From the IMG/VR virus record IMGVR_UViG_3300032331_001209, positions 1-57,200 of that record: DNA of 57,200 nucleotides; one strand, given 5' to 3'. Below the pieces are notes generated by a model. The model had not been told where the DNA came from. It saw only the letters and a list, made by a program, of their open reading frames with translations, and did no database searches. The translations under genes and the position numbers were made by a program. The DNA comes from a virus (Duplodnaviria > Caudoviricetes). The first letter of the stretch is position 1; every line of letters starts with the position of its first letter. Shown here in pieces: positions 2,321-28,527 of this stretch.

Positions 2321-3043
2321 TCAGTGCCAGACGGAGAACTCGTACTTGTAGTTGATCTTGTTGGCCTTGAGCCAGTCGTCGAAGTCGTCCCAAGAGATGC
2401 CCTTCAGCGCGTCCGGGCTGGCCGTGAGCATCTGGTAGAACTTCCGAGCCGCCGTGGCGGACGACGACTTGATGATGGTGTAGTGCGGGTCCGACTGCTC
2501 AAAATCGCTGTTGGGCGAGTAGGACTTGAACTCCAGCCACTCGGCCTTCACCGAGAAGTTCTTGCCGTACACCGTGATGGGCTCGACGTTCTCGGGCACC
2601 ACCGAGAGGTAGTTCACGAGGTCGTCGTACCACTTCACGCCAGAGAGGTCTCGCATCGGGTCGTACCCCGGCGTGGCGTGGGCTCGCACGTCGGCAAGCA
2701 CCTTCTCGCTGGTCATCGCGCCGAAGATCTTGTCCTTGATCGTGTCGAACGAGTCCATCGCGGAAATCTTGCCGTAGTGGCGGATGAGGTTGATGGGCAT
2801 CCACGCATCGAACTTCGTGGAGAAGTAGGGGTTCCGCAACTCGGACACGCGGAGCTTGCGCTTCCCCTTGGCCGGGAGCTCCTCCAGCTTGAACTCGTAG
2901 GGGTTCCACGTCAGACGCCACCCGTCACCGACGAAGACACCTTCCGTGGCCCCCGCCGTCTTCTTGAGGATGGGCAGGAGGTGAGGGCGAAGGGCGGGCT
3001 GCTGATGGGCCAGACGGATCAGCTTGGAACGGAGTGTTGACAT
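2321..3043 (-). CDS. Leader-bearing protein 1 (conserved N-terminal leader + unknown domain)
   Basis: GAGAGGA Shine-Dalgarno 6 nt before the ATG at 3043; begins MSTLRSKLIRLAHQQPALRPHLLPILKKTA. Confidence 0.8.
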   Translation of the reverse strand: MSTLRSKLIRLAHQQPALRPHLLPILKKTAGATEGVFVGDGWRLTWNPYEFKLEELPAKGKRKLRVSELRNPYFSTKFDAWMPINLIRHYGKISAMDSFDTIKDKIFGAMTSEKVLADVRAHATPGYDPMRDLSGVKWYDDLVNYLSVVPENVEPITVYGKNFSVKAEWLEFKSYSPNSDFEQSDPHYTIIKSSSATAARKFYQMLTASPDALKGISWDDFDDWLKANKINYKYEFSVWH

Positions 3044-3068
3044 GGGCATTCCTCTCACATCCCGCAGA

Positions 3069-3083
3069 TATAAAGGGACCAAC
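3069..3083 (-). promoter_or_regulatory. Putative late promoter variant (GTTGGTCCCTTTATA)
   Basis: Same GTT...TAT spacing as the other copies; upstream of leader protein 1. Confidence 0.4.
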
Positions 3084-3086
3084 GAC

Positions 3087-3695
3087 GTGTGGCATGTCTA
3101 CGTCCTCACCAGCACCGTTCGGGCTGTCACCTACGTCGGCTGCACCAATGACGTGGAGCGCCGGGTGCGGCAGCACAACGGAGAACTTTCTGGGGGTGCC
3201 CGGTTCACCCAGCGGTGGCGACCGTGGGAGCTTGGGGCGGTGTACGGGCCGTTTGACGGGAGGGGTGATGCCCAGCGGGCCGAGAGGCTGGTGAAGCGCC
3301 TACGAGGCCGGGAGAGACTGTCAGCGAAGGCCAGCGCGCTCGTCCGCCCGCTCACGCTCCGCGAGGTCGCGATCCCAAGCCGCCCAAGAGGGAGCACCGT
3401 AGGCGGGCTCGATCTCCCGCCAGTGACGGCGACCATTGGGGTTGATCCCCGAGGCTTCGATGCGGGCGAGGAGACCCGCAAACACGTCGGGCACTTCGCT
3501 CCAAGCGGTGACCTCCGTGTAGTCGTGGGCGAAGCGCCGCCCCGTCGCCGTCTCCTCCGCGATCACGAACCAGAGGTGGCCGACCCGCTCGTCGCCATCC
3601 TCCGTGAGGCCGATGGAAACGAGGTTGTCGCGAAGGGCGAAGGTGAAAGAGGGAGCGTTCATGCCCTTCCCACGGAGCCGGGGCGACGGTCGTAA
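3087..3695 (+). CDS. SLX1-like GIY-YIG nuclease (domain ends near 3320; frame runs on antisense to the next gene)
   Basis: HVYVL...TYVGCTNDVERRVRQHNG...GGARFT...RPW...AQRAE is the GIY-YIG/SLX1 pattern. Start codon and true end are uncertain. Confidence 0.75.
   Translation: MWHVYVLTSTVRAVTYVGCTNDVERRVRQHNGELSGGARFTQRWRPWELGAVYGPFDGRGDAQRAERLVKRLRGRERLSAKASALVRPLTLREVAIPSRPRGSTVGGLDLPPVTATIGVDPRGFDAGEETRKHVGHFAPSGDLRVVVGEAPPRRRLLRDHEPEVADPLVAILREADGNEVVAKGEGERGSVHALPTEPGRRS
3321..3662 (-). CDS. Hypothetical protein
   Basis: ATG at 3662 preceded by GGGAAGGG; plausible composition (ends EPAYGAPSWAAWDRDL...). Confidence 0.6.
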   Translation of the reverse strand: MNAPSFTFALRDNLVSIGLTEDGDERVGHLWFVIAEETATGRRFAHDYTEVTAWSEVPDVFAGLLARIEASGINPNGRRHWREIEPAYGAPSWAAWDRDLAERERADERAGLR

Positions 3696-3743
3696 CCAAG
3701 ATTCGTCGCGCCTCGTGGAAAACCCGATTTCTCGTGGGGGTGC

Positions 3744-3751
3744 GGGCGTAA
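3744..3751 (+). promoter_or_regulatory. GGGCGTAA promoter-like motif
   Basis: Exact copy of the motif seen upstream of replication genes; ATG 8 nt downstream. Confidence 0.5.
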
Positions 3752-3806
3752 GGCTGGGCATGACGATCCCCGGTTACACCGTGACCCTCGCCTCCGTGGT
3801 GCGGTC

Positions 3807-4991
3807 ATGACCGCCGCCCTCCCCCGCCCCGTCGTCCACTACGAGATGATCCGGCGCGACCCGCGCAACCCGCTGCGGGTGTTCCCCGAGGACCTGAAGT
3901 CGAAGATCCTCCACGATCCCTTCAACGAGCGGGGCGACAACCCCCTGCCCGCGCAGACGGTGAGTGCGTACAGCACCACCTACAACATGATGCGTTCGGC
4001 CATCGCCTACGAACGCACGGGCCAACAAGTGGTGGTGCTGGGTCCCCGGATGCAGGAGGCGTTCGCCAACACCTCGTTGTCCGAGGTGAGCCCGGAGCAC
4101 GTTCGGTTCCCGCACTCCTGCTTCTACCTCGCCACGCCGGGAAGCAAGATCAAGCTCTGGGGCGGTAGTGACACGGGCTGGCACCGGGTCGAGGGTGCCT
4201 ACATCATGGAGGAACCCACGGAGCCGGGGGTGCTCTCCATGCTCATCTGGGGCGCGGCCAACGAACGGTCGAAGGCCCCCACGGATGATGCGACGTTCTG
4301 GTTCGCCATGAAGATCGGCAGCGGCGCGACGGTCAACCTCGACAGCGACCTTGAAAGCCGCCTCGACGACAACGAGCTCCGCGAGGGCACCCTGCGGAAC
4401 ATCGAACTGGAATCCGCCGTCACCCGCATGGACCTCGACGCGCGGGTGAACGGGGTTCTGGACAACCGCCACGCGAACATCAGCGACCGGCTCGCGAACA
4501 TCCCTCAATCCGAAGAGCTCGCGCGGGAGGTGAAGGGTCAGGTCAAGGCGTTCCTGCGGATCGCCATCAACACCCTGCTCTACATCAACAGCACATCTTG
4601 CGAGACCAAGACCTCCGACAACGAGGCCCAGCGCAAGGAGCTTGAGCAAGCCCTCGCCCGCAAGAAGCACAAGAACGGCAAGGACGCCAAGAAGCTAGGG
4701 CGCGACCTCGACAACCTGCCCAAGTACCGGGTGACGTGGATCGGCCCCACCATCGAAACAAGCGCGGGAAGTGAAACCGACCTCACGGGCACGCGCTCCG
4801 TGAAGGGCCACGTTCGCCGGGGCCATTGGCACACCTACCGGGTGGGGCCGCGAAAGACCGAGGCTGGCGAGAAGATCGACGCCGCGCTGCGGAAGTCGTC
4901 GCTGAAGTGGATCGCCCCCGTGTGGGTCGGGAGCGGTGCGCCCGAGGACAAGCCCCGTGTCTACGGGGTGAGGGAACCCGTCAGCCCGTGA
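3807..4991 (+). CDS. Hypothetical phage protein with C-terminal HxRRGHW motif
   Basis: 394 aa with strong GC3 codon bias; VKGHVRRGHWHTY...WIAPVWVG motif typical of uncharacterised phage proteins. Confidence 0.8.
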   Translation: MTAALPRPVVHYEMIRRDPRNPLRVFPEDLKSKILHDPFNERGDNPLPAQTVSAYSTTYNMMRSAIAYERTGQQVVVLGPRMQEAFANTSLSEVSPEHVRFPHSCFYLATPGSKIKLWGGSDTGWHRVEGAYIMEEPTEPGVLSMLIWGAANERSKAPTDDATFWFAMKIGSGATVNLDSDLESRLDDNELREGTLRNIELESAVTRMDLDARVNGVLDNRHANISDRLANIPQSEELAREVKGQVKAFLRIAINTLLYINSTSCETKTSDNEAQRKELEQALARKKHKNGKDAKKLGRDLDNLPKYRVTWIGPTIETSAGSETDLTGTRSVKGHVRRGHWHTYRVGPRKTEAGEKIDAALRKSSLKWIAPVWVGSGAPEDKPRVYGVREPVSP

Positions 4992-5385
4992 GCTTCGACA
5001 GGAGGGTGGGCTTGAAGTACAAGTCGCGCTCGACCAGCGGGAGCCCGCGACGGTTCGCGTTCTCCAGTTCCGACAGGGAGATGTAGCCGAGCTCACCACC
5101 ACCGTGGCCGAGGTCCGCCCAGCCAAACATCTCGTCCGCCCCGTCCCACTCGGTGATGTACCAAGTCGCCCCGCTGTACGGGGAGAAGAGCTTGACGTAG
5201 GCGATGGGGTCCGCGACGTTCTCCTGCGCCCGCATCCGAGGGACCTTCACGCCCTTGGGCATGAGGGTGTGCTTCCGCACCCGGTCGAGGGGCGACGCCG
5301 CTTCCTTCAGCAGCGGAAGAAGGTGGGAGCGCAGCCCGGGCGTCTCGTGGGCGAGACGGATCAGCTTGGTGCGAAGGGTGGTCAC
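4981..5385 (-). CDS. Leader-bearing protein 2 with DUF2958-like domain
   Basis: AGGAG SD then GTG at 5385; leader TTLRTKLIRLAHETPGLRSHLLPLLKEAA; body VKLFSPYSGATWYITE...FGWADLGHGGGELGYISLSEL...VERDLYF resembles DUF2958. Confidence 0.8.
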   Translation of the reverse strand: MTTLRTKLIRLAHETPGLRSHLLPLLKEAASPLDRVRKHTLMPKGVKVPRMRAQENVADPIAYVKLFSPYSGATWYITEWDGADEMFGWADLGHGGGELGYISLSELENANRRGLPLVERDLYFKPTLLSKLTG

Positions 5386-5411: not shown

Positions 5412-5426
5412 GATAGACCCGGTAGC
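5412..5426 (-). promoter_or_regulatory. Putative late promoter (GCTACCGGGTCTATC)
   Basis: Nearly identical to the 14718-14732 copy (TGACCGCTA-nnn-GGTCTATC). Confidence 0.6.
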
Positions 5427-5428
5427 GG

Positions 5429-8400
5429 TCACGGGTTGATGTCGATGCCGACGAGGCCACGGCACAAGCTCGTCGCGAACGTCGCGGAGACGTTCGCGAA
5501 GTTCAGCGCCTTGCCCGTCACGTTGACCTTGATGATGATCTTCACCAGCACGGGGCACTTGCCCTCGCCGTTGATGAACAGGGCGGCGGGCGACAGGTTC
5601 ACCGTGATGTCCGTGTAATGGATCTGCGACGCGGTGTCGGTACCCGTGGCAGAAGTCACCAAGCACCCGGCACCGTCGAGGGCGAGGTCTTGCTTGGACG
5701 GGCCAGCACCGTCGGGGCGTCCCGCGTCCATCCACGTCGTGAGCCCCGGCACCTTGACCATCACGGCCATGCCCGTGGCTCCCGGCGCGGTGGGGGGCGT
5801 GTACTGGAAGTCGAGGATGTCCACGCCCCACAGGCGGAAGTTCACCGTGGAGGCACCTGCGTTGCCCGCACCCGCGTCGAACGCCCGGTTGTAAGCCCGG
5901 TCATTCACGCACACCGAGTAGTTTAGTCCCGCCGGGGCGTACCCAACAGCATAGTTCGTCTGCGGGTAGATGAGCACCCCGCGCGACGGGAACGGAGAAG
6001 TCAGTCCCTCCGTGTACTCCGGGTTGCGCGGGGGGAGGCCAGCGACTTGGAGCTCGTTGACGGTGACCGTGGCGAGGTTCACCATGTTGACACCTTGGAA
6101 GTACCAGCCGGGATAGTTGGGGTCGCCATTCACGGGCCTCACGGGGACCGAGATGGGCGCGGGACCACTGGGCAGTCCCGGCCCTTGCAGTTGCAAGTTG
6201 TCTGGGAGGCCCAGCGGGAACCAGTTCACCGGGTAGCGGTAGACCTCGTCCAAGAACCGCTCCGATACGTCCTTGGGGGCATTGAGCGTGGCCCGAGTTA
6301 CGTCGTCGGGATTGCCATACGGCACCAGCGCCGCCGTGTTGTCCTCCCGCATTGAGTGGAACAACACCGCCTTGCCCGTGGTATTGGCGAGGGTGAAGCC
6401 TCGCGCGGGAACACCCGTGCCACCAGAGTAGGGGAGGGGATAGCCCGTGGTGCCATCTACGTCGAGGAGCCGCCGCACGAACAGCCGCGCCTTCGCGTCC
6501 GTGGTGAATGCCGGGGTGACCGCATCTCCCGAGAATCGAATCGAGTTCAGCACGTTTCCAGCCGCACTGAAGGTGTACCGAAGGGGGTCGGGACTGGCGG
6601 GTGCAAAGGGGTCGAGGGAGTTCCCAGCTACGTCGGCGTAGCCAAACTCAATCCTCTGGCGGCGGTACTCGCCAAGTCCACCAAAAAACACGGGAAGAGC
6701 CGAGGAGATGCCTCCAGCAGCAGGGTTCTCCGTGCCCTCGTAGCTGAACGGGGAGAGGGACAGGAAGGCCAAGTTCTGATTGAGTGCGTACTTCCGCGAG
6801 TCACCTGCGAGCGTCCCCCCCGTGGGAATCACATCGTGGGTTCGGTAGCTGTCCGCGAAGACGTTGGTCACCTCAAGGTCGAGCACGTCGATCCCGAAAT
6901 TCGGGTCGTTCGCCGTCGTGCGGTCGATGGGAACGTAGTACCCGATGCCCGAGTAGAAGGTCAGTTGACCACCGTTGACGTAGGTCACGTCCAAGGTGAC
7001 GCTGGTGGGGGTGACCATGCCGCTGTTGTCTTCGATGACCTCCGAGCGGTTGACCGGGCTCGCCACCGAGGCCGTGGGCAGGGTAGTGATCTCGACGAGG
7101 TTCTGGAGCACGTCGTAGTTGGGGGTCACGCCCGTCCACTTGACGAGGTTGACCGAGTACACTTGGTCGTTCGTGGGGACTACCCCGTTGACGGCAAAGT
7201 TCTCGAAGTACGCTTCCTTCTTGAAGTGAACGAGGGCGTAGCTGTCGTCGGTGCGAGTGATTGCCGCCCCCGTCGCCAGCACGAAGCGGTGACGGTAGCG
7301 GGCAAGTTGGAAGCCCCAGAAGTCCGCCGCGAAGTCGTCGTAGTCGCCCGCCGGGTCAAGGAAGGGTACGCTGGCGGGTGCGATGGGGCTCGTGAACCGG
7401 GACTTCTCCGTCGCCGGGGTGTAGACCAGCCCCGAAGCCGCCGAGTAGTCCTTGAGGTACGGCAGTCGGTACGCGAGGAAGTTGCCCGCCGTGCCCCCGC
7501 CCCCGGTGCTGAACGAAAATCCCGGCAGGGAGGTGGCCGTTCCGATGGCGTTGTCGGTCGCGCCGAGGATGGGGAGTCCGCCCAAAGTCGTGGCGGGAGA
7601 GAACGTCACCGCCGCCGGGTCCGTGAGGAGCCGCACCTGTCCCGCTGCGGGGTTGAAGAACGGGTCTTCACCTGTCGTGGTCGAGAGCCCCGTGTGGATC
7701 TCATCGAGGTTGTATTGCCCCGCCGCACGGCCCGCGAAGTTGTACGGGCTCGCAGGAGCATCCGTGCCGCCCGCCCCATTCACAATGGTGAAGTCGCCCG
7801 GTGCAGTCCCGAGGTCGAGGAGGCTGATGCTGTTGCCGACGGTCCCCGTCGCGACGGGGATGATCTTCACGGTGCCGCCGCCCGTGGGCAGTGCCGCGAT
7901 GAGGGCCGGGAAGTACAGGTTGTTGAGGGCGAGGGCGAAGCTCTCCGAGGTCAAGATGTTCGACCCGAGAACTTGGAACTCGTAGGCGTTCGTCGGAGCA
8001 ACCGCCGTCGCCGTGAACGTCACGGGCGCGGCAGGCCCGCCCGGGAGTCCCGACAGGTCCACGAGAATCTGGTACGGGGCAGCGGGGTTGGTGTTGTTCG
8101 TGATGAACGCCGAGGCGCGAGTGCCGCCCGAGACCTCCGTGAAGATCCCCCCCGGCTCGCCGTCGCACCCGTTGTCGAGAATTCCCTTGCCGAGCAGGAC
8201 CGCCGCGACAACGACGTTCTGCACGTCGGCCACGCTCGCCGCCGCCGAGGGCTGCGGGTTCTCGCCCGAGGGCCACTTCACGAGGGCGAGGACTCCACGG
8301 TCAGCGGGAGACACGATCCCCGAGACGACCGCTGCGGGGTCTGCCACGGCGGACATGATGTTCCACGACGGGAATCCAATGGTGGACCCTCCCACGCTGA

Positions 8401-8935: not shown

Positions 8936-8937
8936 GG

Positions 8938-14324: not shown

Positions 14325-14696
14325 TCACCTTGGGGTCATGCCACTGGGAACTTCCCAGCCTCGCACGAAGTCCTCCCAGTAACCGGGTTGCCACCGAGCG
14401 ATGTAAGGCAGAGCTTTCGTGACGAGCTCCTTCCGTGCGTCCGCCTCTGAGGCAAACAGAACGGGGGTGTCGTCTCTCGAAAAATCCATCGAGTGCTTCC
14501 AGCCATCCCCCGTCCAGAGAGTCTCCCCCTTCCGAGTGACCAGCTTGATCGCGTAGGTGCGGTCAGCCTTCGACCACAGGGAGACGCTGGGGTTGGTCGT
14601 GACTGCCGCCGTCTTGAGGAGGGGTAGGAGATGTGGACGGAGAGCCGGATTGGCATGGGCCAACCGGATGACCTTGGATCGAAGATTGTCGCTCAC
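14325..14696 (-). CDS. Leader-bearing protein 3 (leader + small unknown domain)
   Basis: GAGG SD; begins MSDNLRSKVIRLAHANPALRPHLLPLLKTAA. Confidence 0.8.
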   Translation of the reverse strand: MSDNLRSKVIRLAHANPALRPHLLPLLKTAAVTTNPSVSLWSKADRTYAIKLVTRKGETLWTGDGWKHSMDFSRDDTPVLFASEADARKELVTKALPYIARWQPGYWEDFVRGWEVPSGMTPR

Positions 14697-14717: not shown

Positions 14718-14732
14718 GATAGACCATCTAGC
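14718..14732 (-). promoter_or_regulatory. Putative late promoter (GCTAGATGGTCTATC)
   Basis: Motif family member directly upstream of leader protein 3. Confidence 0.6.
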
Positions 14733-14734
14733 GG

Positions 14735-17700
14735 TCAGCCCCACACCTGTTGCTGGCTCCCGTCCACCCAGACGGTGACCACTCCCGGTGCCGCGCCCGT
14801 TCGCAGGACGAAGAGGGTCTCGCGGAAAGCGGTCCCGTTGTCGGTGCCGCGCACCACGCCCTCCGAGGGACCGACGGCGTAGAGCATCCGAGGTTCGGCA
14901 GTCGTCGTCGGAGACACCTGTCCCGAGAACGGCGCGACCACGCCCGTGACCGGGTTGGTGAACGAGTAGGTGCCGAGCACGCCGCCGTTGAAACCGTTGC
15001 CCGACGCGAACAGGGCGTAGCGGTAGGAGCCGGGACGGACGCCCACGGGAGGGCGGATCATCCCCGAGTAGTTGTCGTTGAGGTAGCTGCCCGCGAAGGT
15101 GAACTCCGTCGTGCCCCACGTCCCGTCCGGGCCGGGGCCACCCTCGCAGTAGGCCGAGAGACGCCCGCTCTGCCCGCCGTTCCCGATCTGGAAGAACTCC
15201 AAGCGTTCGTACAGGTACTCCGGGTCGTCGTCGAAGCGGCGCACGAGGTACTGGTCTCGGAAGCCGTAGTCGGGGTCGAGCGGGACGGCAGTCCCCACCG
15301 GGGCGGGGAGGGCTGGCGTCGGGCCACCGTCTCCCGAGGCCGTCGAGGCGATGTCCGTGGGGATCGTCAGCGTGGGGGTCGTGGTGCCCGTCTGGGACTG
15401 CTGGAACGTCGGCGTCCCCTCGTTCAGAATCGTCTGCGACTCTGGGAACGGTTGCGTCTGGAGGTAGGTGTTGGTGACGGGCCGCGCCGGGGCGAACACC
15501 ACGTTCACCGGGTGGTTCCGGGTCGGCAGGGCCACCGAGAGCGTGATCTCTTGGCTGTCCTTGTTGAACCGCCAGAGGTTCTGCGGGAGGGTCACACCGT
15601 CCACACGCACGGCGAACACCCGGTCCGCGAAGATGTGGCACGGTCGGAGCGACACCCGGAACAGGGTGACGCTGGACACCACCACTTCTTGAGGCGTCGT
15701 GTCCTTGAGGTAGTCCCCCGAGGTGATGACGTTCCAGCGGTTGAGGACCATCCCCTGCGGCGCGCTGTAGTCCACCGAGGTGTTGGTGAACACCCGGTAC
15801 CGCACGTCGTCCCACGTCGAGAGCACCGAGCCCGAGGGATTGAGGGCACCGAAGCGTGCCGCCCCAAACTTCTCCGTGGGGGTCACCCTCGGGAGCTTGG
15901 GATACTCCAGCCGCACCCACCCGGCACTTGGGTCCATTGACTGCGTGGCGAAGTCCCCCGTGTACCCGGGAGGAGCCGTGAGGTCGGGACGGATGAGCGC
16001 CGCGCCGAAGGTCGGGTCGAGGAACACCCGCACCCAGCACCGGGCCGTCCAGTCCATCGAGGTGATAGTCGAGGCGGGGTCGCTGTTCGGGACGTTCATC
16101 CCGTCCGTGCGAGGCAGCACCCAGTTGTCGATGTCTCCCTCGTCGCCCCCGGCGTGAAGGCCCATCGTGCGGTAGAGGTCGGGAATCCCCTCGTCGGTGC
16201 CGCCGTAGCAGACGCTCCGAAGAGAGGCGTTGAACGTCCCGCCTGCCGGGGCGTCGTAGAGAACTTCGACTTGGCCCCCGCCGCCACCGAAGGCGGTGAC
16301 GAGCACCGTGGCTTGGAGCGTCCCCTCGATGAACAGGTCAATCGTGCCCGCCGCCACGTTGTGGACGAGTCGGTAGGTCCGAGCCTCACCATCCTCCCAC
16401 GGGATTGTTACGACGACGACTGCGCCTCCGTTGGGGGCAGGAGAGAGGACAACACCCGTGGCCCGGAAGTCGAGGTACACGGCGTTGCCGCCGAAGGTGC
16501 CAGCGAAGGCGAAGCCACACCGCCCAGACCCATCGAAGGTGTAGCTCGTGATGGCGACGCGGAACTCCAAGAACCGCCCGACGCACGGTGAGTAGTGGGG
16601 CACCAGCGTGCGTTGGAACGACCAAGCGTTCGCCCCGTCCCCCACGAGGAGCATCTCCGGGCCGTTCGGGAAGGCGTTCCCCGCGCTGCCACTCCACCCC
16701 TGTTGGTAGTACGGGATGGAGCCCACCAAGGATACCGTGTCGAGGCGGTAGATGAGCTTCCCGAGGACGCCACGGTCTTGGTACCGAAGGGTCGCCACTC
16801 GCGCCTCGCGGTGCGTGTCCCGAAGCACGAGGGTCGCACCTCCCACGCCCGCTGTGTCTCGCTCCACGGCGAACTTGCCGTCGAGCGCGGAGACGCGCCG
16901 CCCATTGAGGAACGGGTCCGTGTACCCGTAGCCGTAGGAAGTGCCGAGCCCTGCATCCGCCGGGGTGCTGGTGATCGCTACGGTGTCTCCCGATGCCCGG
17001 GTGTCTCCGAAGGGCGTGGCGAGGTACCAATCCCCGTACTCCGGGTCCGTGGCCGTCCCCGTGAAGCCCGAGGGCACCAAGCGTCCGCCGCTGACCGACG
17101 TGACCGTGATGTTGCCACCGGGAGAACCACTGGCGTTCGTCGCAAGAGTGACGATGGACGCCGCGCTCGTGGCCGACAGGTAGTTGGGGGCGAGGATGCT
17201 GGCGTTGATCGCCGCTGCCAAGTTCTCGGTGGTCTCGGCCACCGACGCCCCGATGGCGAAGTTGGTCCCCGCCGTGAGCGTGACCACCGGGCCAAACAAC
17301 GGTGCCGCCGAGGCGTCGATGGTGACGGTGTCCCCGGGAAGGGGCACGGAGACCCTCACCGTGGCCTTGGCCCACTGGGCGTCCACCACCGTCCCGCGAG
17401 AGTAGGTGTACGCGCCGTCGGGCTGGCTCGCCCCACGGACGAAGTCCCACACGGTCCCGTTGACCGCCGCCCGGTCGATGCTCCCCCATACCATGCGGCC
17501 ATAGCCCTCTGGGAGGATGTCCGGGCCGAGGTAGGCGGGGGAGGCCACGATGCTCGTCCCTACCGAGGTGGTCGAGCCGGATTTGCCGCCGAAGACCACG
17601 GAGACTGACTGACTGCGGGTGTTCGCGTACATGCGCCACGTCGAGAGACCCGTGTCCCAAGCCGTGTCGAAGTAGAGGGTCACGTCCCGGTTGCCGAGCA

Positions 17701-20405: not shown

Positions 20406-23400
20406 TCACCTGTCGGTGTCGTAAGTGAAAGTCACGTCGTTCCAGACGAGATACTCCATCGAGTTGGGGTCGATGTCCTTGTCGCCCGAGTCGTCCGCCG
20501 TGACGTAGGTACACCAGTAGGCGTGGTTCGACGGGGCATCCCCCACCGGGAGGGACACCAGCACGCAGTTCTTCACGAGCCCGGTGCCCGTCCCGTACCC
20601 CGGGATCACCTGCCCGTCGTCGCCAATGATGTAGGCTTGGCCGTTCGCCAGCCCGAGGTTCTGCGGCGCTGTCAGTTGCAGGGTGAGTTGGGCGTCGTCT
20701 TGGAACACACCCCGGAACTCGTTCGTGGGGCCACCCCCCGTGGACGTAGGCGCGTCGAGCTCTTGGATAATCAGCCACACGGCGTACTTGGCGTTCGACC
20801 ATGCGTTGACCCGGAAGCAGTCACCGAAGGTCGCCGTGGCCAAGTCGTTGCGGACGATCTGGTAGCCCGTCGCCCGTACCATCTTGGTGAGCGGCACGAC
20901 GACGTAGGACACGCCCTCCGTCCCGTCGATCTCCGCGATCACGTCACTGCGCCGCAACGGGTCACCGAGCTTGAGGGTGCCCATGAGGTACTGGAGGTTG
21001 TTGCGGATGGCGATGTCTACGTTGGTGCGGTCGTAGCCCTTCTTGAGGATGACCGTCGCCGTGAGGTCCACGGGCGTCCGCACCGCTTGCTTCGCCACCA
21101 CGTCCGCCGTGGCGTGAGCCATGTCGTCGAGCTCCTGTTGGAGCACCGAGGTCACGAGGTTGGTCTGGTACGCGACCACGAAGTTCTCGTAGTAGCTGTA
21201 CGAGATGGTCACCGTGTCCCCGTCTAGGATGGCGCTGCTCTCCGTGCGACGGATGCCCGCCGCCACGGTGCTGGACCCCTCGATGATCGTGTAATCGGGC
21301 GACCCGCTGGGGTCATACGGCCCCTTGTAGGTCACGGCACCCGACTGGCTCTTCACCACGATGGAGAGGGTCTCCGCGCCGAGGTTGTACAAGAACTCGG
21401 TGTAGAAGCCCGTGACGACGTGGAGCTCGTCCACCACGGGGATGAGGTTGCCCGAGGGCGAGACCACCGTGGGGTCCGTGGACTGGTTGATCTGGAGGTA
21501 GTCGCCCGCCTTGGTCGAGTTCCCGAGGCCCAAGGGGCTGTCCGGGTGGACAAGGCTGTAGAGCGAGATGTCTACCGGGCCGATCACCTCGCCCGTCACG
21601 TTCAGCACCTCGTTCACGGGCTGGCGAGCGAAGACGTGCTTGTTGCCGAGGCGGAAGCGGAAGTCCCCGAGGACGATGTCCGTGAGGGTCACCGGGGGCT
21701 GGGCCAGCGTCACGTCTAGCTGGATGGTGTTGAAGTTGAGGTAGACGACGTTCGTGAGGTCGAACGTCTCGCCCGTTGTTACGTTCTTCAGCCCGAGTCC
21801 GTAGGAGGGGTAGTCGAGCATCTGGGCGAGCGGGTTGTCGGGGGTCACCTCGTCGCTCACCACCCGGAAGATGTAGTTGGTCGGGCTCCCGATCACCACG
21901 AACTGCACGTCGTTGCGACGCTCGTAGGTGAACGAGAACGTGTCGGTCACGGTCACGTTGCGGACGCCTCGCGCCCACACGTCCACCTTGCCGCCGAGGT
22001 GGCGCTTGAGGGTGGTGTCGTAGTCACGCTGCATCAGCGGGTCGCCCGCCCGGACCACGAGGTTCTGGAGGGTGCCCGGGACGCCCGCCGCCACTTGGCG
22101 GATGCCCTGCGTCGTGCCCGTGTCCACGGAGGCCAAGGCCGTCCGCGCCCTCGCCGCCAACTGCGCGTTGGTCTCCACGTTCGCGCCGCCGAAGGTGGCC
22201 GCGTCGTTGGTCACCGCCATCCCGTACACGTTGGAAGAAGTGAGTTGTCGCGGGCCGACGTTGGTGTTCGTGCCCACGGACAACGCCTTCACCGGGACCG
22301 TGATCGAGTATTCTCTCGTCGAGGGGTTGTAGTAGCTGGCGAGGGAGTTCACGTCCATCGACGCCGAGCGGGAGGTGCGGAACTGGATGCCGCCGCCGAC
22401 GACCACCGTGCCGAGCGGGACGTTGATCGTCTGGGTGGGGGGCGAAGAAGTGAAGAAGCGCACCTCGCCCACGGCTGCGGTCCCCGAGGATCGGACGACG
22501 CCGAAGTTCGCGGCGATCTTGTCGAACGATCCGTCGATGACGTTCTGCACGTCGTTGACGTTGGAGTAGAAGAAGGCCGCTGCGAGGGCCGTCTTGTACG
22601 CCGACGAGGCTGGCGGGGTGGACACGCCCGAGCCCGAGGGATCGTCCACGAGGAGCAGGGTGTCGAAGGAGCTCGCCCGGTAGGTGTAGTCGAGGACTAG
22701 GCGCAGCCGTTCGGACTCCGTCGTGAACGGGTCGAGGAAGATGTCCCGCACCACGGACCCGGGCTGCACCGCGATGTCCGGGTTCTGGCGGTAGATGGTC
22801 GCAATGGCACTCTCAAGGATCTGCTGGCGAGGCACCGCCGTGAGACCGTTGATCTGCTGGCGCACCTGCGCGGGAGCCCCCACCACCTCCGAGGAGAAGT
22901 AGGACTCGTACTCGACTTGGATGACCGGGTCGTAGTAGACCGCCGTGACGACGTAGTAGAGGAGCTCCGTCGCCGGGGTGCTCGCGAACGTCCCGTTGAA
23001 GATCGTCGCGGGGTTCGACAGGGCGTTGGCGTTGCGGACGTGCTTGAAGCTGTAGTAGGTGACGTTGGTCACCGAGGACACGGCGATGTCGGTGCGGATG
23101 GTCGTGAGGCCGCTGGGGAGCTCGATCCGAGAGTTGACATCCGTGGACAACACCACCGCGTCGCTGTCCTCTTGGTCGATCTTGGCCCGGTAGTAGAGGG
23201 GGGTGGCGCTCTGGGCCACGTTGTCCGACGACAGGAGGTAGAGCTCCGTGACGTTCTGGACATCCTCGCCCGTGGTGACCCGGTTCACGTTGAGGAGGCG
23301 GTAGCCCGCCACCCCGCCGCCCGACTCCGTCGAGGCGTAGAAGTTGTACCCGACGATGCGGCTGTCCGTGAGCTCCTCTGCCGTCACCTTCACCGCCCCG

Positions 23401-23777
23401 TCGAGGCGCTCGATGGTGATTGCCGAGGGCGGGAGGAACACGTCGGCCTCCTCCGAGGGGAGGAGGTGGACCACCACCGTCGCCGGGACGCTGCGCCCGC
23501 CCGCGAGGTTGACCGCCCGGATCTGGATCGTGTTGTCGCCCGAGAAGAGGTCCAGACCGTTGGGGAACGCCGCCGGGTTCGGGATGGTGAACCCGGTGCC
23601 CGAGAAGGAGGCCAGCGTGGGGTCGCTCGTGAACGGCTGGCCGTAGATCGACACCTCCACGTCCACGGTGTCGTCGGGGAGAACTCCCGTGAAGAACCGG
23701 GTGGTCTGCGTGGTCGAGAACGCCGAGGTCTGCCGAAGGACATCGTCGGGGCCAAGGAACTGAACGGAAGTAGCCAT
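20406..23777 (-). CDS. Baseplate J-like wedge protein
   Basis: PGSVVRDIF, FDKIAANFGVVR...AAVGEVRF, VPLGTVV, GGANVETNAQLAAR and GKVDVW are baseplate J/gp6 hallmarks. Confidence 0.88.
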   Translation of the reverse strand: MATSVQFLGPDDVLRQTSAFSTTQTTRFFTGVLPDDTVDVEVSIYGQPFTSDPTLASFSGTGFTIPNPAAFPNGLDLFSGDNTIQIRAVNLAGGRSVPATVVVHLLPSEEADVFLPPSAITIERLDGAVKVTAEELTDSRIVGYNFYASTESGGGVAGYRLLNVNRVTTGEDVQNVTELYLLSSDNVAQSATPLYYRAKIDQEDSDAVVLSTDVNSRIELPSGLTTIRTDIAVSSVTNVTYYSFKHVRNANALSNPATIFNGTFASTPATELLYYVVTAVYYDPVIQVEYESYFSSEVVGAPAQVRQQINGLTAVPRQQILESAIATIYRQNPDIAVQPGSVVRDIFLDPFTTESERLRLVLDYTYRASSFDTLLLVDDPSGSGVSTPPASSAYKTALAAAFFYSNVNDVQNVIDGSFDKIAANFGVVRSSGTAAVGEVRFFTSSPPTQTINVPLGTVVVGGGIQFRTSRSASMDVNSLASYYNPSTREYSITVPVKALSVGTNTNVGPRQLTSSNVYGMAVTNDAATFGGANVETNAQLAARARTALASVDTGTTQGIRQVAAGVPGTLQNLVVRAGDPLMQRDYDTTLKRHLGGKVDVWARGVRNVTVTDTFSFTYERRNDVQFVVIGSPTNYIFRVVSDEVTPDNPLAQMLDYPSYGLGLKNVTTGETFDLTNVVYLNFNTIQLDVTLAQPPVTLTDIVLGDFRFRLGNKHVFARQPVNEVLNVTGEVIGPVDISLYSLVHPDSPLGLGNSTKAGDYLQINQSTDPTVVSPSGNLIPVVDELHVVTGFYTEFLYNLGAETLSIVVKSQSGAVTYKGPYDPSGSPDYTIIEGSSTVAAGIRRTESSAILDGDTVTISYSYYENFVVAYQTNLVTSVLQQELDDMAHATADVVAKQAVRTPVDLTATVILKKGYDRTNVDIAIRNNLQYLMGTLKLGDPLRRSDVIAEIDGTEGVSYVVVPLTKMVRATGYQIVRNDLATATFGDCFRVNAWSNAKYAVWLIIQELDAPTSTGGGPTNEFRGVFQDDAQLTLQLTAPQNLGLANGQAYIIGDDGQVIPGYGTGTGLVKNCVLVSLPVGDAPSNHAYWCTYVTADDSGDKDIDPNSMEYLVWNDVTFTYDTDR

Positions 23778-24877
23778 CAGTAGTTCCCCAGAGACAGGCG
23801 GTTGGTTCCCGGCAACGCGAACGTCCCCGGGGCCGTGTACACGATGGAAATGGTCACGGGTTCAGACGAGTAGTTCCGCACGTCCACCTCGATGAGGAAG
23901 GTCGTGGGATCACTGGGAGATTGTGCCACGGCGATGTTGTCCACGGAGAAAAGACGCTCCTTGGCCGTGACCCGCTGGTACTTGGACTGGGCGTTCTGGA
24001 GGTTCTGGAGCGTCGTGAGGGCTTGGTTGACCGACTGCTTCAGCCCGATGGCCGTACCGCCCAGCACCTTGCTACCAATGCTGGCCGCGAGGTTCGACCC
24101 GTACCAAGGCTGGTAGATGTTCGACCCGAGCTCCGTGAGGATCATCTTGAGGCACATCTGGTAGAGGAGATTCTCGTCCTCGACCACCAGTGCCTCCCCC
24201 TGCGCGTCGAAACGGAAGTCGTTCTCGACCTCCGTGGTGAGGCATCGCAGGCACAGGTTCGGAGCCACGGGATACGACACCGTGAAGTACACACCCTGCT
24301 TGACAGGGGCGTTGAACCCGATGTAGTAGCCGAGGGAGTCCACGGCGTCTTCGGGGTTGACGACGCTGCGAGAGTAGAGCCTCCACGGGGGGATCACCGT
24401 TTTGCCACGGTCGCCGCTCTGCTGGTCGAAGCCCAGCGCCTCCAGCGCCGAGCCAGACAGTTGGACCTTGGAGGTCGGGCCGGGGTCCGCCGTGTCCGTG
24501 ATGACGAGGTACCCGTTGGGAGACGTGACCGTCACCAACCCCTTCACCGCCGACGTGATGGCAGCGGACACCTGCGCCGCCGACAGGTACCCCGGCGAGA
24601 AGTTCACCGCCGCCGTCCCAACCCCCGTGGTCACCACCAAGGTCCGCGTGGCGACGGTGACCTTGTAGGGCTCGCGGCGGTACGACTTCACCGAGGCAGG
24701 GGTGACCAGCCCCGTGTAGGGAGAGACAGGCGTGCCGTCGTTCGCCCGCACCACCACCAGCGTCGGTCCTGCGATGGGCTTGGACGTGTACAGCGTGCGT
24801 CGGTCATCCCCGAGGGTGACCCTCTCCTCACCGATGATGTGAGGGCAGGGATAAGCCAGACAAATATCACGAGACAC
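23777..24877 (-). CDS. Baseplate wedge protein with C-terminal gp25/GPW-like domain
   Basis: AGGAG SD then GTG at 24877; LYQMCLKMILTELGSNIYQPWYGSNL...IG matches the gp25 'L.T..G....P.YGS' motif. Confidence 0.8.
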   Translation of the reverse strand: MSRDICLAYPCPHIIGEERVTLGDDRRTLYTSKPIAGPTLVVVRANDGTPVSPYTGLVTPASVKSYRREPYKVTVATRTLVVTTGVGTAAVNFSPGYLSAAQVSAAITSAVKGLVTVTSPNGYLVITDTADPGPTSKVQLSGSALEALGFDQQSGDRGKTVIPPWRLYSRSVVNPEDAVDSLGYYIGFNAPVKQGVYFTVSYPVAPNLCLRCLTTEVENDFRFDAQGEALVVEDENLLYQMCLKMILTELGSNIYQPWYGSNLAASIGSKVLGGTAIGLKQSVNQALTTLQNLQNAQSKYQRVTAKERLFSVDNIAVAQSPSDPTTFLIEVDVRNYSSEPVTISIVYTAPGTFALPGTNRLSLGNY

Positions 24878-25664
24878 GGGGTTTCTCCTGCGCCTTTCGC
24901 GCTTGGGCTTCCCGTCGATCCTGCGTCCACGGAACCCCTTTTCGGGCACGAGACATAGCGGCCTTGTGCTCGTCGGAGAGGGTTCGGCCCAGCATCTTGA
25001 TGCGTTGCTCCTCTGGGAAGGGCTTACCTTTCTTGGCGTTGCTAACTTTCAACCGCACGTCATCCGTGCGGGGCACCCCCCGTCGAGCCTCCGCAGCGGC
25101 AATACGGGCGGGTGATTGGGGCTTGCCTTTGAGGGCTTTGCTGATGGCCTCACGCTTTTCCGGGGGCATAGGCCCCCGGGGAATACCCTTCTGTGCCGCA
25201 CTGATCTTGGCCTTGGTTTCGCTTGAGTGAGGACCCCTTTTCTTGCCGAGGTGAGCCGCCTTCATCTTGGACAGAGTATCGGGGGAACGATTGCGAGACG
25301 CTTCACCGATTTTTCGACGGGCCTCCTCATCAGGCGTGTACCCGTGGAAGCTACCAGCCGTAGGGAGAGTGTTCAGCCCACGGGTCGCCGCTTGGAAAGT
25401 GTCGAGGTAATGCTGCTCCCTAGACTCTAGGTCGGAGGGGTCGGTGACCTCTTCCAGAACCTCAAACGAAAAATGGCACCCGCCGTACAGGTCCCATGCC
25501 TTCTGAAGTTTCGGAGGACCACTTCCCTCGCTCAACGATTTCAAGTGGTCGTACCACCTCCCCTTGATTCTCCTAGACTGACCGACGTACACACGTCCGT
25601 CAGCCTTGCATCGAATGATGTAAATGCCCATTTTCGGGGGGTTGGGATGGACCGTGGGGGACAT
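24867..25664 (-). mobile_element. Free-standing GIY-YIG homing endonuclease with NUMOD3-like repeats
   Basis: GIYIIRC...VYVGQS...RWYDH...LESREQHYLD...GLN catalytic domain, then repeated HSSETKAKISAAQKG-type units; visibly more AT-rich than its flanks. Confidence 0.88.
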
Positions 25665-25682
25665 GGTTCACCGGGGGCGTGT

Positions 25683-25697
25683 GATAACGGCGAAACC
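25683..25697 (-). promoter_or_regulatory. Putative late promoter (GGTTTCGCCGTTATC)
   Basis: Motif family member upstream of the endonuclease/baseplate operon. Confidence 0.5.
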
Positions 25698-25702
25698 GTT
25701 GT

Positions 25703-26599: not shown

Positions 26600-26661
26600 G
26601 GTGTCACCTACCCTTGCGGACCATAGAGAAAGCCACGGGAGCCACCCACCCTACACCATGC

Positions 26662-26669
26662 GGGCGTAA
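26662..26669 (+). promoter_or_regulatory. GGGCGTAA promoter-like motif
   Basis: Exact copy, upstream of the + strand gene at 26709. Confidence 0.5.
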
Positions 26670-26708
26670 TGCCTGTTACGGAAGCACCCAAGGCTCCGTT
26701 GGAGTGGC

Positions 26709-27137
26709 ATGGCGACGATCATCCCGACAGAGGGCGACCTTGTGGAGTCCCCGGCACCGGGCACCAGCGAGGAGGTGCAGACCGTTCTGGGCGCAATCGG
26801 GGTCCGTGCCCACGGAGCCCCGGACGGCTCGTCATGGTGGGTTCTCGAACCCCCTCTCGTGGGCGACACGGCCCGCAACGAGCGGGCCAGCCGCTTCTAC
26901 GCCTCCCGCACGGGCGGGGCACCTTTGACCCTGTACGGCAAGGTGCTGTACCTGTCGGCGGACGAGACCAAGGCACTCGCAGGGGTCGCGGAGGAGATGC
27001 TCCCGATCCGTGGCCGCACCTACGACGTGCGAGACAAGCTCAAGGCCATTGGGGCGCGTTGGTACGCCGCCGAGAAGGTCTGGAAGATCGCCAAGTCCAA
27101 GATGGCCGAGGCGGACGAGATCGTGAGGCGAGGTTGA
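26709..27137 (+). CDS. Hypothetical protein with C-terminal DUF5710-like motif
   Basis: GGAG SD; GRTYDVRDKLKAIGARWYAAEKVW matches the 'K.LGARW...K.W' domain. Confidence 0.7.
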   Translation: MATIIPTEGDLVESPAPGTSEEVQTVLGAIGVRAHGAPDGSSWWVLEPPLVGDTARNERASRFYASRTGGAPLTLYGKVLYLSADETKALAGVAEEMLPIRGRTYDVRDKLKAIGARWYAAEKVWKIAKSKMAEADEIVRRG

Positions 27138-27279
27138 GGCGTCGGAAGCCCCCGGAACCACCGCTGCACCGTCTCCGTGGGGACATCGGTTGGGCAGGGT
27201 CGGTCACGAATCTGCTCATCCGATGGCCCTCCGAACAGAAGTCCACCGGGGTCGGACTACGGGTGACCCTGCCCTTCCG

Positions 27280-27456
27280 TCAGTCCCGAGGCTCGTCGGC
27301 ACCTCGCCGGAAGTAGCTGTAGAGGGCCTTCCCCAAGTCCTTGTCACAGGAGTAGCAACGGATGCCCTCGGCGGTGATCCGAAGGTGCTTGTGCTCGCAC
27401 TCGTCGTCGGGGTCGAGAACGCACCAGCGGTCCTCTGGCGGATGACGGTCTCTCAC
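27280..27456 (-). CDS. Small putative zinc-binding protein (58 aa, below the ORF-track cut-off)
   Basis: Manual translation VRDRHPPEDRWCVLDPDDECEHKHLRITAEGIRCYSCDKDLGKALYSYFRRGADEPRD*; CxH...CxxC ligands. Confidence 0.5.
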   Translation of the reverse strand: MRDRHPPEDRWCVLDPDDECEHKHLRITAEGIRCYSCDKDLGKALYSYFRRGADEPRD

Positions 27457-27491
27457 ACGATAGGGGGGCGATAGGCGTACCGTAGGAACCT

Positions 27492-28046
27492 ATGCCACTC
27501 ACCGTTATCGTCGGTCCAATGTTCTCGGAAAAGTCCACCACCTTGCACCGTTACGTCTCGCGGGCGTTGCGGGCCAAGAAGCGCGTGGACGTGGTCGTGC
27601 CCGTGGTGGACACCCGCAGCAAGGGGCAGGTGGTCACCCACTCCGGGCTCACCTTGGAGTCACTGGGCGTCACACCCCGCACGGCGGCGAGCTCCGCAGA
27701 CCTGTACCGGGCGATGCCCTCCCCCGCCCCGGACCTCATGGTGATCGAGGAGGCCCAGTTCTTCGACATCGACCTCCCGCTGTGGGTCGGGAAGCTGGTC
27801 GAACAGGGCATCCACGTCGTCGCGGCGGGGCTCGATCTCACCAGCGAGGGCGGACCCTTCGGCCCGATGGGGCACCTCATGTGCCTCGCGGACCGGGTCG
27901 AGAAGCTCACGGCGATCTGCGCGTGCGGCGCGGAGGCCACCCGGACGAAGTGCCGGGTCAAGAAGGACGGGGATGTGCTGGTGGGGGGCGGCGGGGAGTA
28001 CGTCCCGGCGTGTTTGAAGTGCTGGCGGAAGCACCTCAAGCGATAG
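27492..28046 (+). CDS. tdk: Thymidine kinase (type II)
   Basis: GPMFSEKST P-loop, IEEAQFF, VAAGLD, KLTAICACG and GGGEYVPACLKC. Confidence 0.93.
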   Translation: MPLTVIVGPMFSEKSTTLHRYVSRALRAKKRVDVVVPVVDTRSKGQVVTHSGLTLESLGVTPRTAASSADLYRAMPSPAPDLMVIEEAQFFDIDLPLWVGKLVEQGIHVVAAGLDLTSEGGPFGPMGHLMCLADRVEKLTAICACGAEATRTKCRVKKDGDVLVGGGGEYVPACLKCWRKHLKR

Positions 28047-28047
28047 A

Positions 28048-28527
28048 TCAGCTTCCAGCCAGATAATCGCGCAGCCGATCACCCACCAACTTGGCAATGT
28101 CCGCACCCAGTTTCGGGACGGACACATGAGACCAGTAGTTGTTGAAGTACTTCAGCGGGACTTTCACCGCGACGTTCTTCCCGCCACGCCCAAAAGTGTA
28201 CTCCACCGTGTAGTTCTCTGTGGTGTCAACATCGACCCAGATGTAGTCGTTGCCTTTGGGGTCGTCAGAGAAGTACCCCACGATCTCCAACTTCAGCGAG
28301 TTGGGGATGAGGTTCAGGGCGTCAAACCTGAGAACCCCCCTGAACCCTGCATCCAATTGGTTGAGGATGGCGTTGCCAAGGTCGCGGGTCAGATTCTTTT
28401 TGGCACCGTAGAGAGAATCGGCGTCGGGTGCTGCCGTCTTGGTGAGGAGGGGCATGAGGTGCGAACGGAGCTCCGGGTTGGTGTGAGCCAGCCGGATGAT
28501 CTTGGAACGGAGTGCTTGGTCGCTCAT
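28048..28527 (-). CDS. Leader-bearing protein 4 (leader + AT-richer unknown domain)
   Basis: Begins MSDQALRSKIIRLAHTNPELRSHLMPLLTKTAA. Confidence 0.8.
   Translation of the reverse strand: MSDQALRSKIIRLAHTNPELRSHLMPLLTKTAAPDADSLYGAKKNLTRDLGNAILNQLDAGFRGVLRFDALNLIPNSLKLEIVGYFSDDPKGNDYIWVDVDTTENYTVEYTFGRGGKNVAVKVPLKYFNNYWSHVSVPKLGADIAKLVGDRLRDYLAGS

Follow-up and report, generated by a model that had tools for sequence, protein, structure and literature searches.

Four genes in a 57 kb piece of DNA from an uncultured huge phage (the window, the whole stretch of 57,200 nt analysed) begin with the same basic module of about 30 residues, fused to bodies that are unrelated to each other. This module, a tag not described before, occurs on thousands of proteins from uncultured giant phages: it matches 3361 protein clusters at E ≤ 1e-3 and 437 at E ≤ 1e-10. 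Taking sequence, structural prediction and analogy together, the tag may be a head-targeting address that is removed by the prohead protease, a reading to which we give about an even chance.

The leader module and its genes

A sequence-only reading of this DNA had claimed a leader of about 30 residues in four genes, and the translations, all on the minus strand, bear it out (Table 1). The consensus is M-x-x-LRSKLIRLAHxNPELRPHLLPLLKxA, with 17 of 36 columns invariant across the four leaders. The core comprises 23–27 residues, reaching about 30 with the start and K-x-A (27–31 overall). Exactly four copies are found by a six-frame regular-expression scan of the window. With a profile HMM built from 64 leaders, these copies score 56–68 bits, against 3.4 bits for the next best match in the window and at most 6.3 bits for residue-shuffled frames. 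As had been proposed, conservation operates at the protein level with synonymous changes: the 25 core codons are 63–76% identical in DNA between pairs, and different codons encode 6–13 of the 17–20 identical residues per pair. The likeness, previously placed as stopping at K-T/E-A, ends at a K-x-A-(A/G) boundary.

Beyond this boundary, the bodies are indeed unrelated, three unknown and one DUF2958-like: the gene starting at 5385 is the only one with a Pfam or PHROG match, and blastp among 14 bodies (four from the window, ten from the related phage) finds no body-to-body similarity at E ≤ 1e-3. Each of the four window proteins contains one domain. A distant relative of the gene 1 body, with the module at an internal position, is encoded by a related 485 kb phage, and tagged DUF2958 relatives of gene 2 are also present in other phages. 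In P0122, a close relative of gene 3, a 146-aa insert separates the tag from the gene 3-type body; gene 4 has one relative, P0096, which is 84% identical.

The leader is basic and amphipathic, with a net charge of +3 to +6 over 25 residues plus two histidines. Its dismissal as a Sec or Tat signal stands: the maximum mean Kyte–Doolittle value per 12-mer is 0.5–1.28, with no hydrophobic 12-mer and no RR, and the existence of C-terminal copies of the module also counts against a signal peptide. The four genes are scattered among others of their strand: baseplate genes, other large virion-module genes and very large genes without annotation. Each had been credited with its own copy of a motif regarded as late-type; three of the four do have a copy, TGACCG...CTATC, 26–37 nt upstream, and the gene starting at 3043 has TTATATC only. 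Sigma-70 promoters and intrinsic terminators near the tagged genes occur at or below chance.

Table 1 Tagged genes, upstream motifs and structural context in the window
Feature	Position	Strand	Detail
Gene 1 leader module MSTLRSKLIRLAHQQPALRPHLLPILKKTA	2954..3043	(-)	ATG at 3043; profile 68.5 bits
Gene 1 body, ~210 aa	2321..2953	(-)	Without family in Pfam and PHROG searches
Gene 2 leader module, then KEAAS	5296..5385	(-)	GTG start (5385); profile 56.1 bits
Gene 2 body, DUF2958 domain	4981..5295	(-)	E 1.3e-17
Upstream motif TGACCG-N9-CTATC (contains GACC-N7-GGTC)	5412..5431	(-)	31 nt before gene 2 start
Gene 3 leader module, then KTAA	14604..14696	(-)	GTG start (14696); profile 66.0 bits
Gene 3 body, 89 aa	14325..14603	(-)	Without family in Pfam and PHROG searches
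Upstream motif TGACCG-N9-CTATC	14718..14737	(-)	26 nt before gene 3 start
Baseplate J-like gene and sheath-initiator-like gene (context)	20406..24949	(-)	
Gene 4 leader module, then KTAA	28429..28527	(-)	ATG start (28527); profile 62.1 bits
Gene 4 body, ~125 aa	28048..28428	(-)	Without family in Pfam and PHROG searches
Upstream motif TGACCGACTATC	28560..28571	(-)	37 nt before gene 4 start

Distribution, positions and cargo of the tag

In IMG/VR, 96 confirmed stretches occur in 36 contigs, many of 100–485 kb. The related 485 kb phage holds 11 copies, scoring 44–63 bits against at most 7.5 bits for everything else. Among GenBank phages, the tag is present in one uncultured record only. The module is phage-specific: the 185,579 cellular genomes searched give three matches, all on MAG contigs of 1.3–7.7 kb. 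No match is found in Pfam, NCBIfam, PHROGs or PDB sequences (Pfam at E ≤ 10; best PDB E 0.79), and a literature search that covered parts of 10.1101/2025.02.27.640493 and PMC7824862, with subscription journals and supplements outside its range, found no paper printing or describing the tag. The window is syntenic with 402–466 kb of the 485 kb relative, and the tagged genes vary in presence and body; that phage has one tagged gene between its scaffold-like and capsid genes. About 96 of its 594 ORFs have homologues in three distant genomes. A phyletic profile of tag-bearing against tag-free genomes does not single out a receptor: four genes fit the expected pattern, present with the tag and missing without it, and one genome classed as tag-free, G004, may carry a diverged tag.

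The leader-profile search that had been called for returns the many matches and diverse domains anticipated; the expectation of an exclusively N-terminal module fails, with about 101 of 124 sampled copies N-terminal and about 23 C-terminal or internal. Some proteins contain 2–6 copies, and tandem copies are common. The description of a portable, phage-specific tag on interchangeable bodies holds, the bodies turning over fast.

The tagged domains include ART-PolyVal, DUF2958, pentapeptide, DUF3846, DUF5710 and DUF7007, together with WGR, RelA/SpoT, GNAT, ParB-like and Peptidase_C39-like domains. By their predicted identities, these types overlap with proteins predicted or known to be packaged in the head and injected (cf. 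PMC5512222, in part). Polyvalent proteins, in the sections of that study considered here (Iyer et al. 2017, PMC5512222), join 2–15 disparate domains per chain and, by prediction, reach the host together with the DNA. The two repertoires overlap in ART-PolyVal, GNAT, ParB-like, peptidase and RelA/SpoT, whereas most cargo here is a lone small domain that bears a tag of its own (median about 150 aa). Multi-domain tagged proteins also exist, with GNAT in P0006 and Peptidase_C39_2 plus WGR in P0349, and in the larger tagged proteins the tags lie between domains.

A flanking motif shared with head proteins

The residues before internal copies favour G-K-x-A-S (K 44%, A 43%, S 45%; n = 156), and those after modules favour K-x-A-A (K 44%, A 41%, A 42%; n = 205). 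Directly after LLPLL, an exact K-x-A-[AS] is present in only 20 of 100 N-terminal copies, and K-x-A-[ASG] lies within two residues of LLPLL in 41 of 100. The same motif recurs in three head proteins. In the N-arm of the capsid protein, K-x-A-[AS] is invariant at residues 25–29. In the ORF at the scaffold position, it lies 40–60 residues from the C-terminus in 41 of 45 distinct loci, bounding a conserved C-terminal domain of about 48 aa that is the protein's own; in the 485 kb relative, this protein is without the tag module. In the prohead protease, it occurs 2–3 times in the C-terminal half (four genomes). The excess in single head proteins is modest after composition correction (p ~0.01–0.09), for a protein set picked after inspection.

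Capsid protein, scaffold and the protease itself are known substrates of T4-type and giant-phage proteases, according to the portion of PMC5694885 drawn on here. By its location in these sequences, K-x-A-[AS] occurs where prohead proteases usually cut all three. The motif is a testable candidate for the prohead protease cleavage site in this lineage, and the K-x-A boundary may be a different, non-T4 site; a Ser/Thr in front of LR may be no more than a helix cap.

The capsid gene sits in the phage head module beside the portal, protease and scaffold genes. The capsid protein has a median identity of 89%, compared with 43% for the neighbouring protease, and, given this unusual conservation, might therefore serve as the receptor of a tag that is just as conserved. 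In two huge phages, one rated 100% complete, the same capsid protein occurs without any clear copy of the tag; its conservation can therefore not be put down to the tag. Mimicry of the capsid N-arm by the tag was tried as a separate idea and ruled out (hhalign probability 0.1%).

In the proposed mechanism, the module would form a basic helix-turn-helix hairpin and serve one lineage of uncultured huge phages as a portable tag for docking. Its target would be a conserved site in the assembling head, on either the scaffold core or an HK97-type capsid protein, and the accessory proteins, many of which resemble host-takeover or anti-defence effectors, would enter the procapsid. The prohead protease would then cleave K-x-A-[A/S] bordering the tag, and the cargo thus freed would exit with the DNA at infection. 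Off-terminus copies do not suit a simple N-terminal propeptide and count against this head-tag reading. A bolder version, suggested by the sequences and in our view doubtful though possible, is a position-independent 'zip code plus cut site': a capsid-recognised hairpin would load dozens of interchangeable effectors and polyproteins, and the protease would trim the tags at K-x-A-[A/S], where it would also cut itself, the capsid protein and the scaffold. The lineage would then possess a programmable protein-delivery system of natural origin, which would partly explain a capsid that stays about 90% identical while the genome diverges.

Known systems, alternative roles and meaning

The T4 capsid-targeting sequence (CTS), as presented in parts of PMC3012670 and PMC5694885, is a short tag and the sole common part of diverse, fast-evolving internal proteins and Alt, which enter the prohead core and are injected; the prohead protease cuts the tag off. 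The module is likewise a conserved tag shared by diverse, fast-evolving small proteins, and the setting is also alike: a contractile-tailed phage with a prohead protease, in which tagged accessory genes lie among late-type structural genes. The parallel drawn by the sequence-only reading is an analogy only, as length, predicted hairpin and cleavage motif differ. The T4 CTS has 10–20 residues and is N-terminal, whereas the module is longer and also C-terminal, internal or tandem, and the two have no sequence likeness. The T4 prohead protease cleaves at L/I-x-x-E; here, E follows LLK in only 29 of 95 copies.

A second parallel is the C-terminus of the P22 scaffold. Its helix-turn-helix, about 30 residues long and U-shaped, anchors to the inner surface of the HK97-fold procapsid (PMC9965877, in part) and has been used as a coat-binding domain to load foreign cargo into P22 particles (PMC9962691, in part). 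The module is similarly basic and is modelled, as a prediction, as a helix-turn-helix of about 30 residues. The P22 hairpin is on the scaffold only, whereas the module is on many unrelated proteins and is absent from the scaffold-like protein; neither a sequence search nor a fold search finds a match. Encapsulin and microcompartment peptides are short, lie at either end of the cargo, are sometimes repeated on disordered linkers and bind the shell interior, and the encapsulin shell has the HK97 fold. The module resembles them as a short tag at either end of unrelated proteins, sometimes repeated, but the sequences are unrelated, and a genuine phage capsid would take the place of the shell. A cargo gene beside a shell gene in a cellular genome, which marks encapsulins, was not found, the cellular matches being the three short MAG contigs.

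The strongest alternative, although unlikely, is that the tag docks on a hub outside the virion, such as an intracellular compartment built by the phage, a condensate or some highly conserved host machinery, and concentrates effectors and repair enzymes during infection. The module works at any position, and its multi-copy arrangement with highly charged linkers (K 15%, E 11%, D 8%) resembles scaffold-client systems. Tagged RNA ligase and 2H phosphoesterase, which are not classic virion cargo and count against the head-tag reading, would act in the cytoplasm, as would RelA/SpoT. Copies also lie outside the structural regions (for example at 281–283 kb of the 485 kb relative). Nor are the surroundings of the capsid gene rich in tagged genes, which likewise counts against the head-tag reading: of 80 loci of up to 12.9 kb, 14 contain 19 copies between them, close to the density over whole genomes. 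However, the G+C content of these phages ranges from 43% to 65% and their hosts probably differ, so that a host receptor would have to be near-universal. The position of all four window genes amid same-strand baseplate and large virion-module genes, and the flanking motif common to head-assembly proteins, also argue against such a hub, and no compartment gene emerged in searches aimed at other questions.

Still less likely is a self-associating 'sticker', in which the hairpins would pair and join proteins into hetero-oligomers or a gel, possibly an inner-body-like head core. The two-module protein P0144 is modelled by AlphaFold from a single sequence as two helix-turn-helix hairpins (helices 6–16/18–29 and 37–50/55–62; pLDDT 85), and the two hairpins are placed relative to each other with a pTM of 0.64; in this model, the tags may pair mutually and not with the capsid. 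A fold search with it gives no match at E ≤ 0.001, and single-sequence models readily pack amphipathic helices. Many of the top 150 representatives combine an N-terminal copy with a C-terminal one (25) or an internal one (55), in a list biased towards multi-copy proteins because copy scores add up, and one protein of 63 aa consists of two modules and nothing else; the window and the 485 kb relative, by contrast, have single-tag proteins only. A structural or nucleic-acid-binding element without addressing, either a lone HEAT/LRV-like repeat or a DNA-binding mini helix-turn-helix, is highly improbable: the module is basic with a predicted helix-turn-helix, its period approximates that of HEAT/LRV repeats, and such repeats occur elsewhere in some tagged proteins, but no Pfam repeat or HTH model matches even at E ≤ 10, copies are single or 1–677 residues apart with no solenoid array, the module is attached to all kinds of enzymes and small domains, and all of 95 N-terminal copies start 2–5 residues past the start codon, as expected of a terminal tag.

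Whatever the mechanism, this large conserved family is absent from curated libraries and merits a family model. If the tag is a head-targeting address, the injected arsenal of many uncultured giant phages would be readable directly from sequence, yielding thousands of candidate host-takeover and anti-defence proteins, mostly without known family, and the tag itself would be a small peptide that could be moved onto foreign proteins to load them into HK97-type capsids.

Four tagged genes and their peptide module

Four genes of the window open with a tag, a module of about 30 residues, followed by a body that differs from gene to gene. Their translations agree with those of the sequence-only reading, and a six-frame scan of the window finds exactly four module copies. 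With a profile built from 64 leaders, these copies score 56-68.5 bits, against 3.4 bits for the next match in the window and 6.3 bits for the best of the shuffled frames. Among the four leaders, 17 of 36 columns are invariant. Pairwise DNA identity over the 25 core codons is 63-76%, and 6-13 of the 17-20 residues identical in each pair are encoded by different codons. Residues are thus kept while codons differ, so it is the peptide that is under selection, and the proposed conservation at protein level with synonymous changes is upheld. The leader is also, as described earlier, basic and amphipathic without a hydrophobic core. The bodies are indeed unrelated: one is a DUF2958 protein (E 1.3e-17), the other three fall into no Pfam or PHROG family, and blastp among 14 bodies from the window and its 485 kb relative finds no similarity.

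From 95 N-terminal copies the consensus reads (M-x-x)-L-R-S-K-L-I-R-L-A-H-x-N-P-E-L-R-P-H-L-L-P-L-L-K-x-A-(A/G), beyond which conservation ends; every one of the 95 has its start codon 2-5 residues ahead of LR. P0144, a natural 63-residue protein, consists of two modules. Its structure, predicted without an alignment (pLDDT 85, pTM 0.64), contains four helices at residues 6-16, 18-29, 37-50 and 55-62, so each module is predicted to form a helix-turn-helix hairpin. A comparison of this model with the PDB gives no significant fold match. Two ORFs in other contigs hold the module only; they may be remnants, competitors or miscalled genes.

Coordinates of the tagged genes and associated features
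Feature	Sequence	Position	Strand	Remark
Tagged gene 1	window	start 3043	minus	ATG
Tagged gene 2	window	start 5385	minus	GTG
Tagged gene 3	window	14325-14696	minus	GTG
Tagged gene 4	window	start 28527	minus	ATG
Upstream motif with inverted repeat GACC-N7-GGTC just before TATC	window	5412-5431	minus	
Upstream motif with inverted repeat GACC-N7-GGTC just before TATC	window	14718-14737	minus	
CTATC(C) near other genes	window	genes starting 12186 and 35802		17-33 nt before the gene
CTATC(C) near other genes	window	genes starting 31472 and 56644		101-115 nt upstream
GIY-YIG/NUMOD3 homing endonuclease gene	window	24867-25664	minus	
967-aa protein	window	28569-31472	minus	
Scaffold-like protein	L108	11229-12497		
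Capsid protein	L108	13910-14785		G001 317910-318785
Module-only ORF	L053	4001-4081	minus	27 codons
Module-only ORF	L063	5631-5744	plus	38 codons
Tag look-alike	G004	reverse-strand codon offset 120864	minus	frame 2, start of a 358-codon stop-to-stop frame

The window, with a G+C content of 65%, spans the whole 57.2 kb virus record and carries nearly all its genes on the minus strand. It codes for baseplate J-like and sheath-initiator-like proteins, several proteins of 967-1887 aa without annotation, PhoH/PIN, thymidine kinase, a family A DNA polymerase, DnaB-like and SNF2 helicases and a methylase; none of the annotated genes of the 57.2 kb is a capsid, portal or terminase gene. The homing endonuclease gene, flanked by genes of the baseplate module, overlaps the beginning of the sheath-initiator-like gene; similar endonucleases are present within the head module of the 485 kb relative. 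The 967-aa protein adjoining tagged gene 4 has a phosphatidylserine-decarboxylase-like domain (residues 72-241, E 3.2e-15), unusual for a virion-module gene.

The sole relative of the window among GenBank phages is the uncultured 485 kb phage LR745208.1, with 64% identity between the polymerases. Its IMG/VR copy, G001, is syntenic with the window at 402-466 kb in inverted orientation. G001 (L092-L117) also codes for several IS605-type transposases, GroEL, RtcB, several RNA ligases, NAD synthetase and tRNA-His guanylyltransferase, and its head module includes a topoisomerase IB fused to a HAD domain. The tagged genes are accessory. The site syntenic to gene 4 carries a tagged gene with an unrelated 326-aa body, and genes 1-3 have no counterpart in place in G001. 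CTATC(C) lies 12-37 nt upstream of the start in three of the four tagged genes of the window and about five of ten in G001, and ahead of about 20 of the 594 G001 ORFs overall; some large virion-module genes are likewise preceded by it.

Distribution, arrangement and bodies of the tagged proteins

The many matches anticipated for a profile search were found. A four-sequence profile matches 3361 proteins at E<=1e-3 and 437 at E<=1e-10 among 1.84 billion cluster representatives, and 2529 come up when a 63-sequence profile is used in a word-indexed search. Every source of the matching cluster proteins is metagenomic, and all names are ‘hypothetical’ save one generic label. IMG/VR yields 96 confirmed stretches, of which 76 loci were kept, in 36 contigs by our count, many of 100-485 kb. 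G001, like LR745208.1, has 11 module copies (44-63 bits), all other matches there reaching at most 7.5 bits. Across 185,579 bacterial and archaeal species (one genome each) there are three matches, each in a MAG contig 1.3-7.7 kb long. The module has no counterpart among Pfam, NCBIfam and PHROG models or PDB sequences, and none of the papers found, in their accessible portions, prints the motif or reports such a tag in huge phages.

The expectation that the tag is always N-terminal did not hold. The 124 distinct copies at 89 loci comprise about 101 N-terminal, about 7 protein-ending (LLPLLK followed by 0-6 residues) and about 16 internal ones. The internal copies are genuine: the frame ahead of them has coding composition and is conserved between phages, for example in L040 and L057. 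The 150 best representatives, a list skewed to multi-copy proteins, show N (23), N+internal (55) and N+C (25) architectures with up to six copies; linkers between copies, 1-677 residues long, are K-, E- and D-rich. Fusion of two tagged genes gave rise to some of the internal copies, as in P0336, laid out as tag, DUF2958, tag and second body. P0122, a close relative of gene 3 with a 100% identical body, carries a 146-residue insert exactly at the junction of tag and body, and domains are therefore gained or lost there.

The diversity of bodies noted earlier extends across the family. Proteins with an N-terminal tag only are small (median about 150 aa), and 89 of 100 tagged IMG/VR proteins have no Pfam family. 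The remainder include DUF2958 (2), pentapeptide repeats, DUF7007, ART-PolyVal, DUF3846, RNA ligase and DUF5710 (2, one weak), with weak RelA/SpoT and bactofilin-like matches. The top cluster representatives add WGR, RelA/SpoT, LRV/HEAT, DUF7717, TFIIS_M, GNAT, Peptidase_C39-like, 2H phosphoesterase and a weak ParB-like nuclease match. Domains of the ART, GNAT, ParB-like and peptidase kinds are typical of ‘polyvalent proteins’, and the prediction for these is packaging in the head and injection alongside the DNA (PMC5512222, PMC7824862).

Head module and candidate cleavage motif

The head module of G001 runs in the order portal, protease, E/K-rich scaffold-like protein, tagged 134-aa gene, 228-aa gene and capsid gene, and 6 kb beyond is another tagged gene. 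The capsid protein is of HK97 type (291 aa) and has 491 IMG/VR relatives, the best 80 of which are 89-100% identical; the protein collection holds 2094 clusters, with 87-94% identity in the top 120. At the same loci, median identity is 43% for the protease and 52% for the 228-aa neighbour, and three genomes with capsid proteins ~89-90% identical to that of G001 contain homologues of about 96 of its 594 ORFs. This capsid protein is 87-100% identical over hundreds of contigs (including loci L118-L197) with G+C from ~43% to 65%, in a huge-phage group where homologues are not detectable for the bulk of the genome.

The best 80 capsid loci include at least 11 of the 36 contigs that bear tags. Phages sharing the G001-type capsid protein carry 11, 3, 1, 0 and 0 tags. 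One with zero clear tags, G004, has an N-terminal look-alike without the conserved prolines (9.1 bits, E about 1), perhaps a divergent version of the tag.

K-x-A-[AS] is a candidate cleavage motif. K-x-A-A follows modules (exactly in three of the four window tags; K-T-A-G in the other), and G-K-x-A-S precedes internal and C-terminal copies. In G001, K-x-A-[AS] has a frequency of 8.4e-4 per residue. The G001 capsid protein has two motifs within its first 29 residues, KLAAS being invariant in 48 sequences; the scaffold-like protein has five against 1.9 expected from composition; two sites fall in the C-terminal part of the protease; and two small head-module paralogues contain the motif as well. 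Three distant genomes repeat this pattern, with 2-3 protease sites past residue 270, KKAS[Y] in the scaffold ~47 residues before the C-terminus, and KLAAS at residue 26 of the capsid protein. The head proteins of these genomes total 14 sites against ~3.9 expected.

Of 45 distinct scaffold-position ORFs, 41 have the motif 40-60 residues before the C-terminus (two of the four exceptions are apparently wrong ORF picks), exactly where the acidic low-complexity region meets the conserved C-terminal domain. In the scaffold-like protein of L108 and the scaffold-position ORFs of L119-L195, an acidic, low-complexity body precedes a conserved domain of ~48 aa (…LRPQPR…VKTLG…DLSKLWESAPDVSK.FG) that begins at K-K-A-[AS] and resembles a separable capsid-binding end. 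According to PMC5694885, the prohead proteases of T4 and giant phages cleave the N-terminus of the capsid protein, several scaffold sites, the C-terminus of the protease itself and targeting propeptides. The exact motif stands on just 20 of 100 N-terminal tags, the statistics for individual proteins are modest, the head-protein set was picked after inspection, and helix capping could lie behind part of the pattern.

Possible roles of the tag

A portable docking tag agrees with the evidence. Tagged-gene density at 80 capsid-gene loci is no higher than the genome-wide level (19 copies in 14 loci). Docking on a hub outside the virion is an unlikely role for the tag, and self-association of tags, several of which can occur in one protein, is somewhat less probable still. 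A structural or DNA-binding element without an addressing role is improbable.

As a docking tag, the module is closest in shape to the coat-binding hairpin of the P22 scaffold, being itself a predicted hairpin (PMC9965877). In logic it is closest to the T4 capsid targeting sequence, the sole feature common to diverse defence-type proteins (PMC3012670); here, too, the diverse proteins have only the tag in common. The module belongs to neither family. In conclusion, the tag may direct its bodies to the head for later proteolytic release, a reading in which we infer partner, packaging, cleavage and injection alike, and for which our confidence is evenly balanced.
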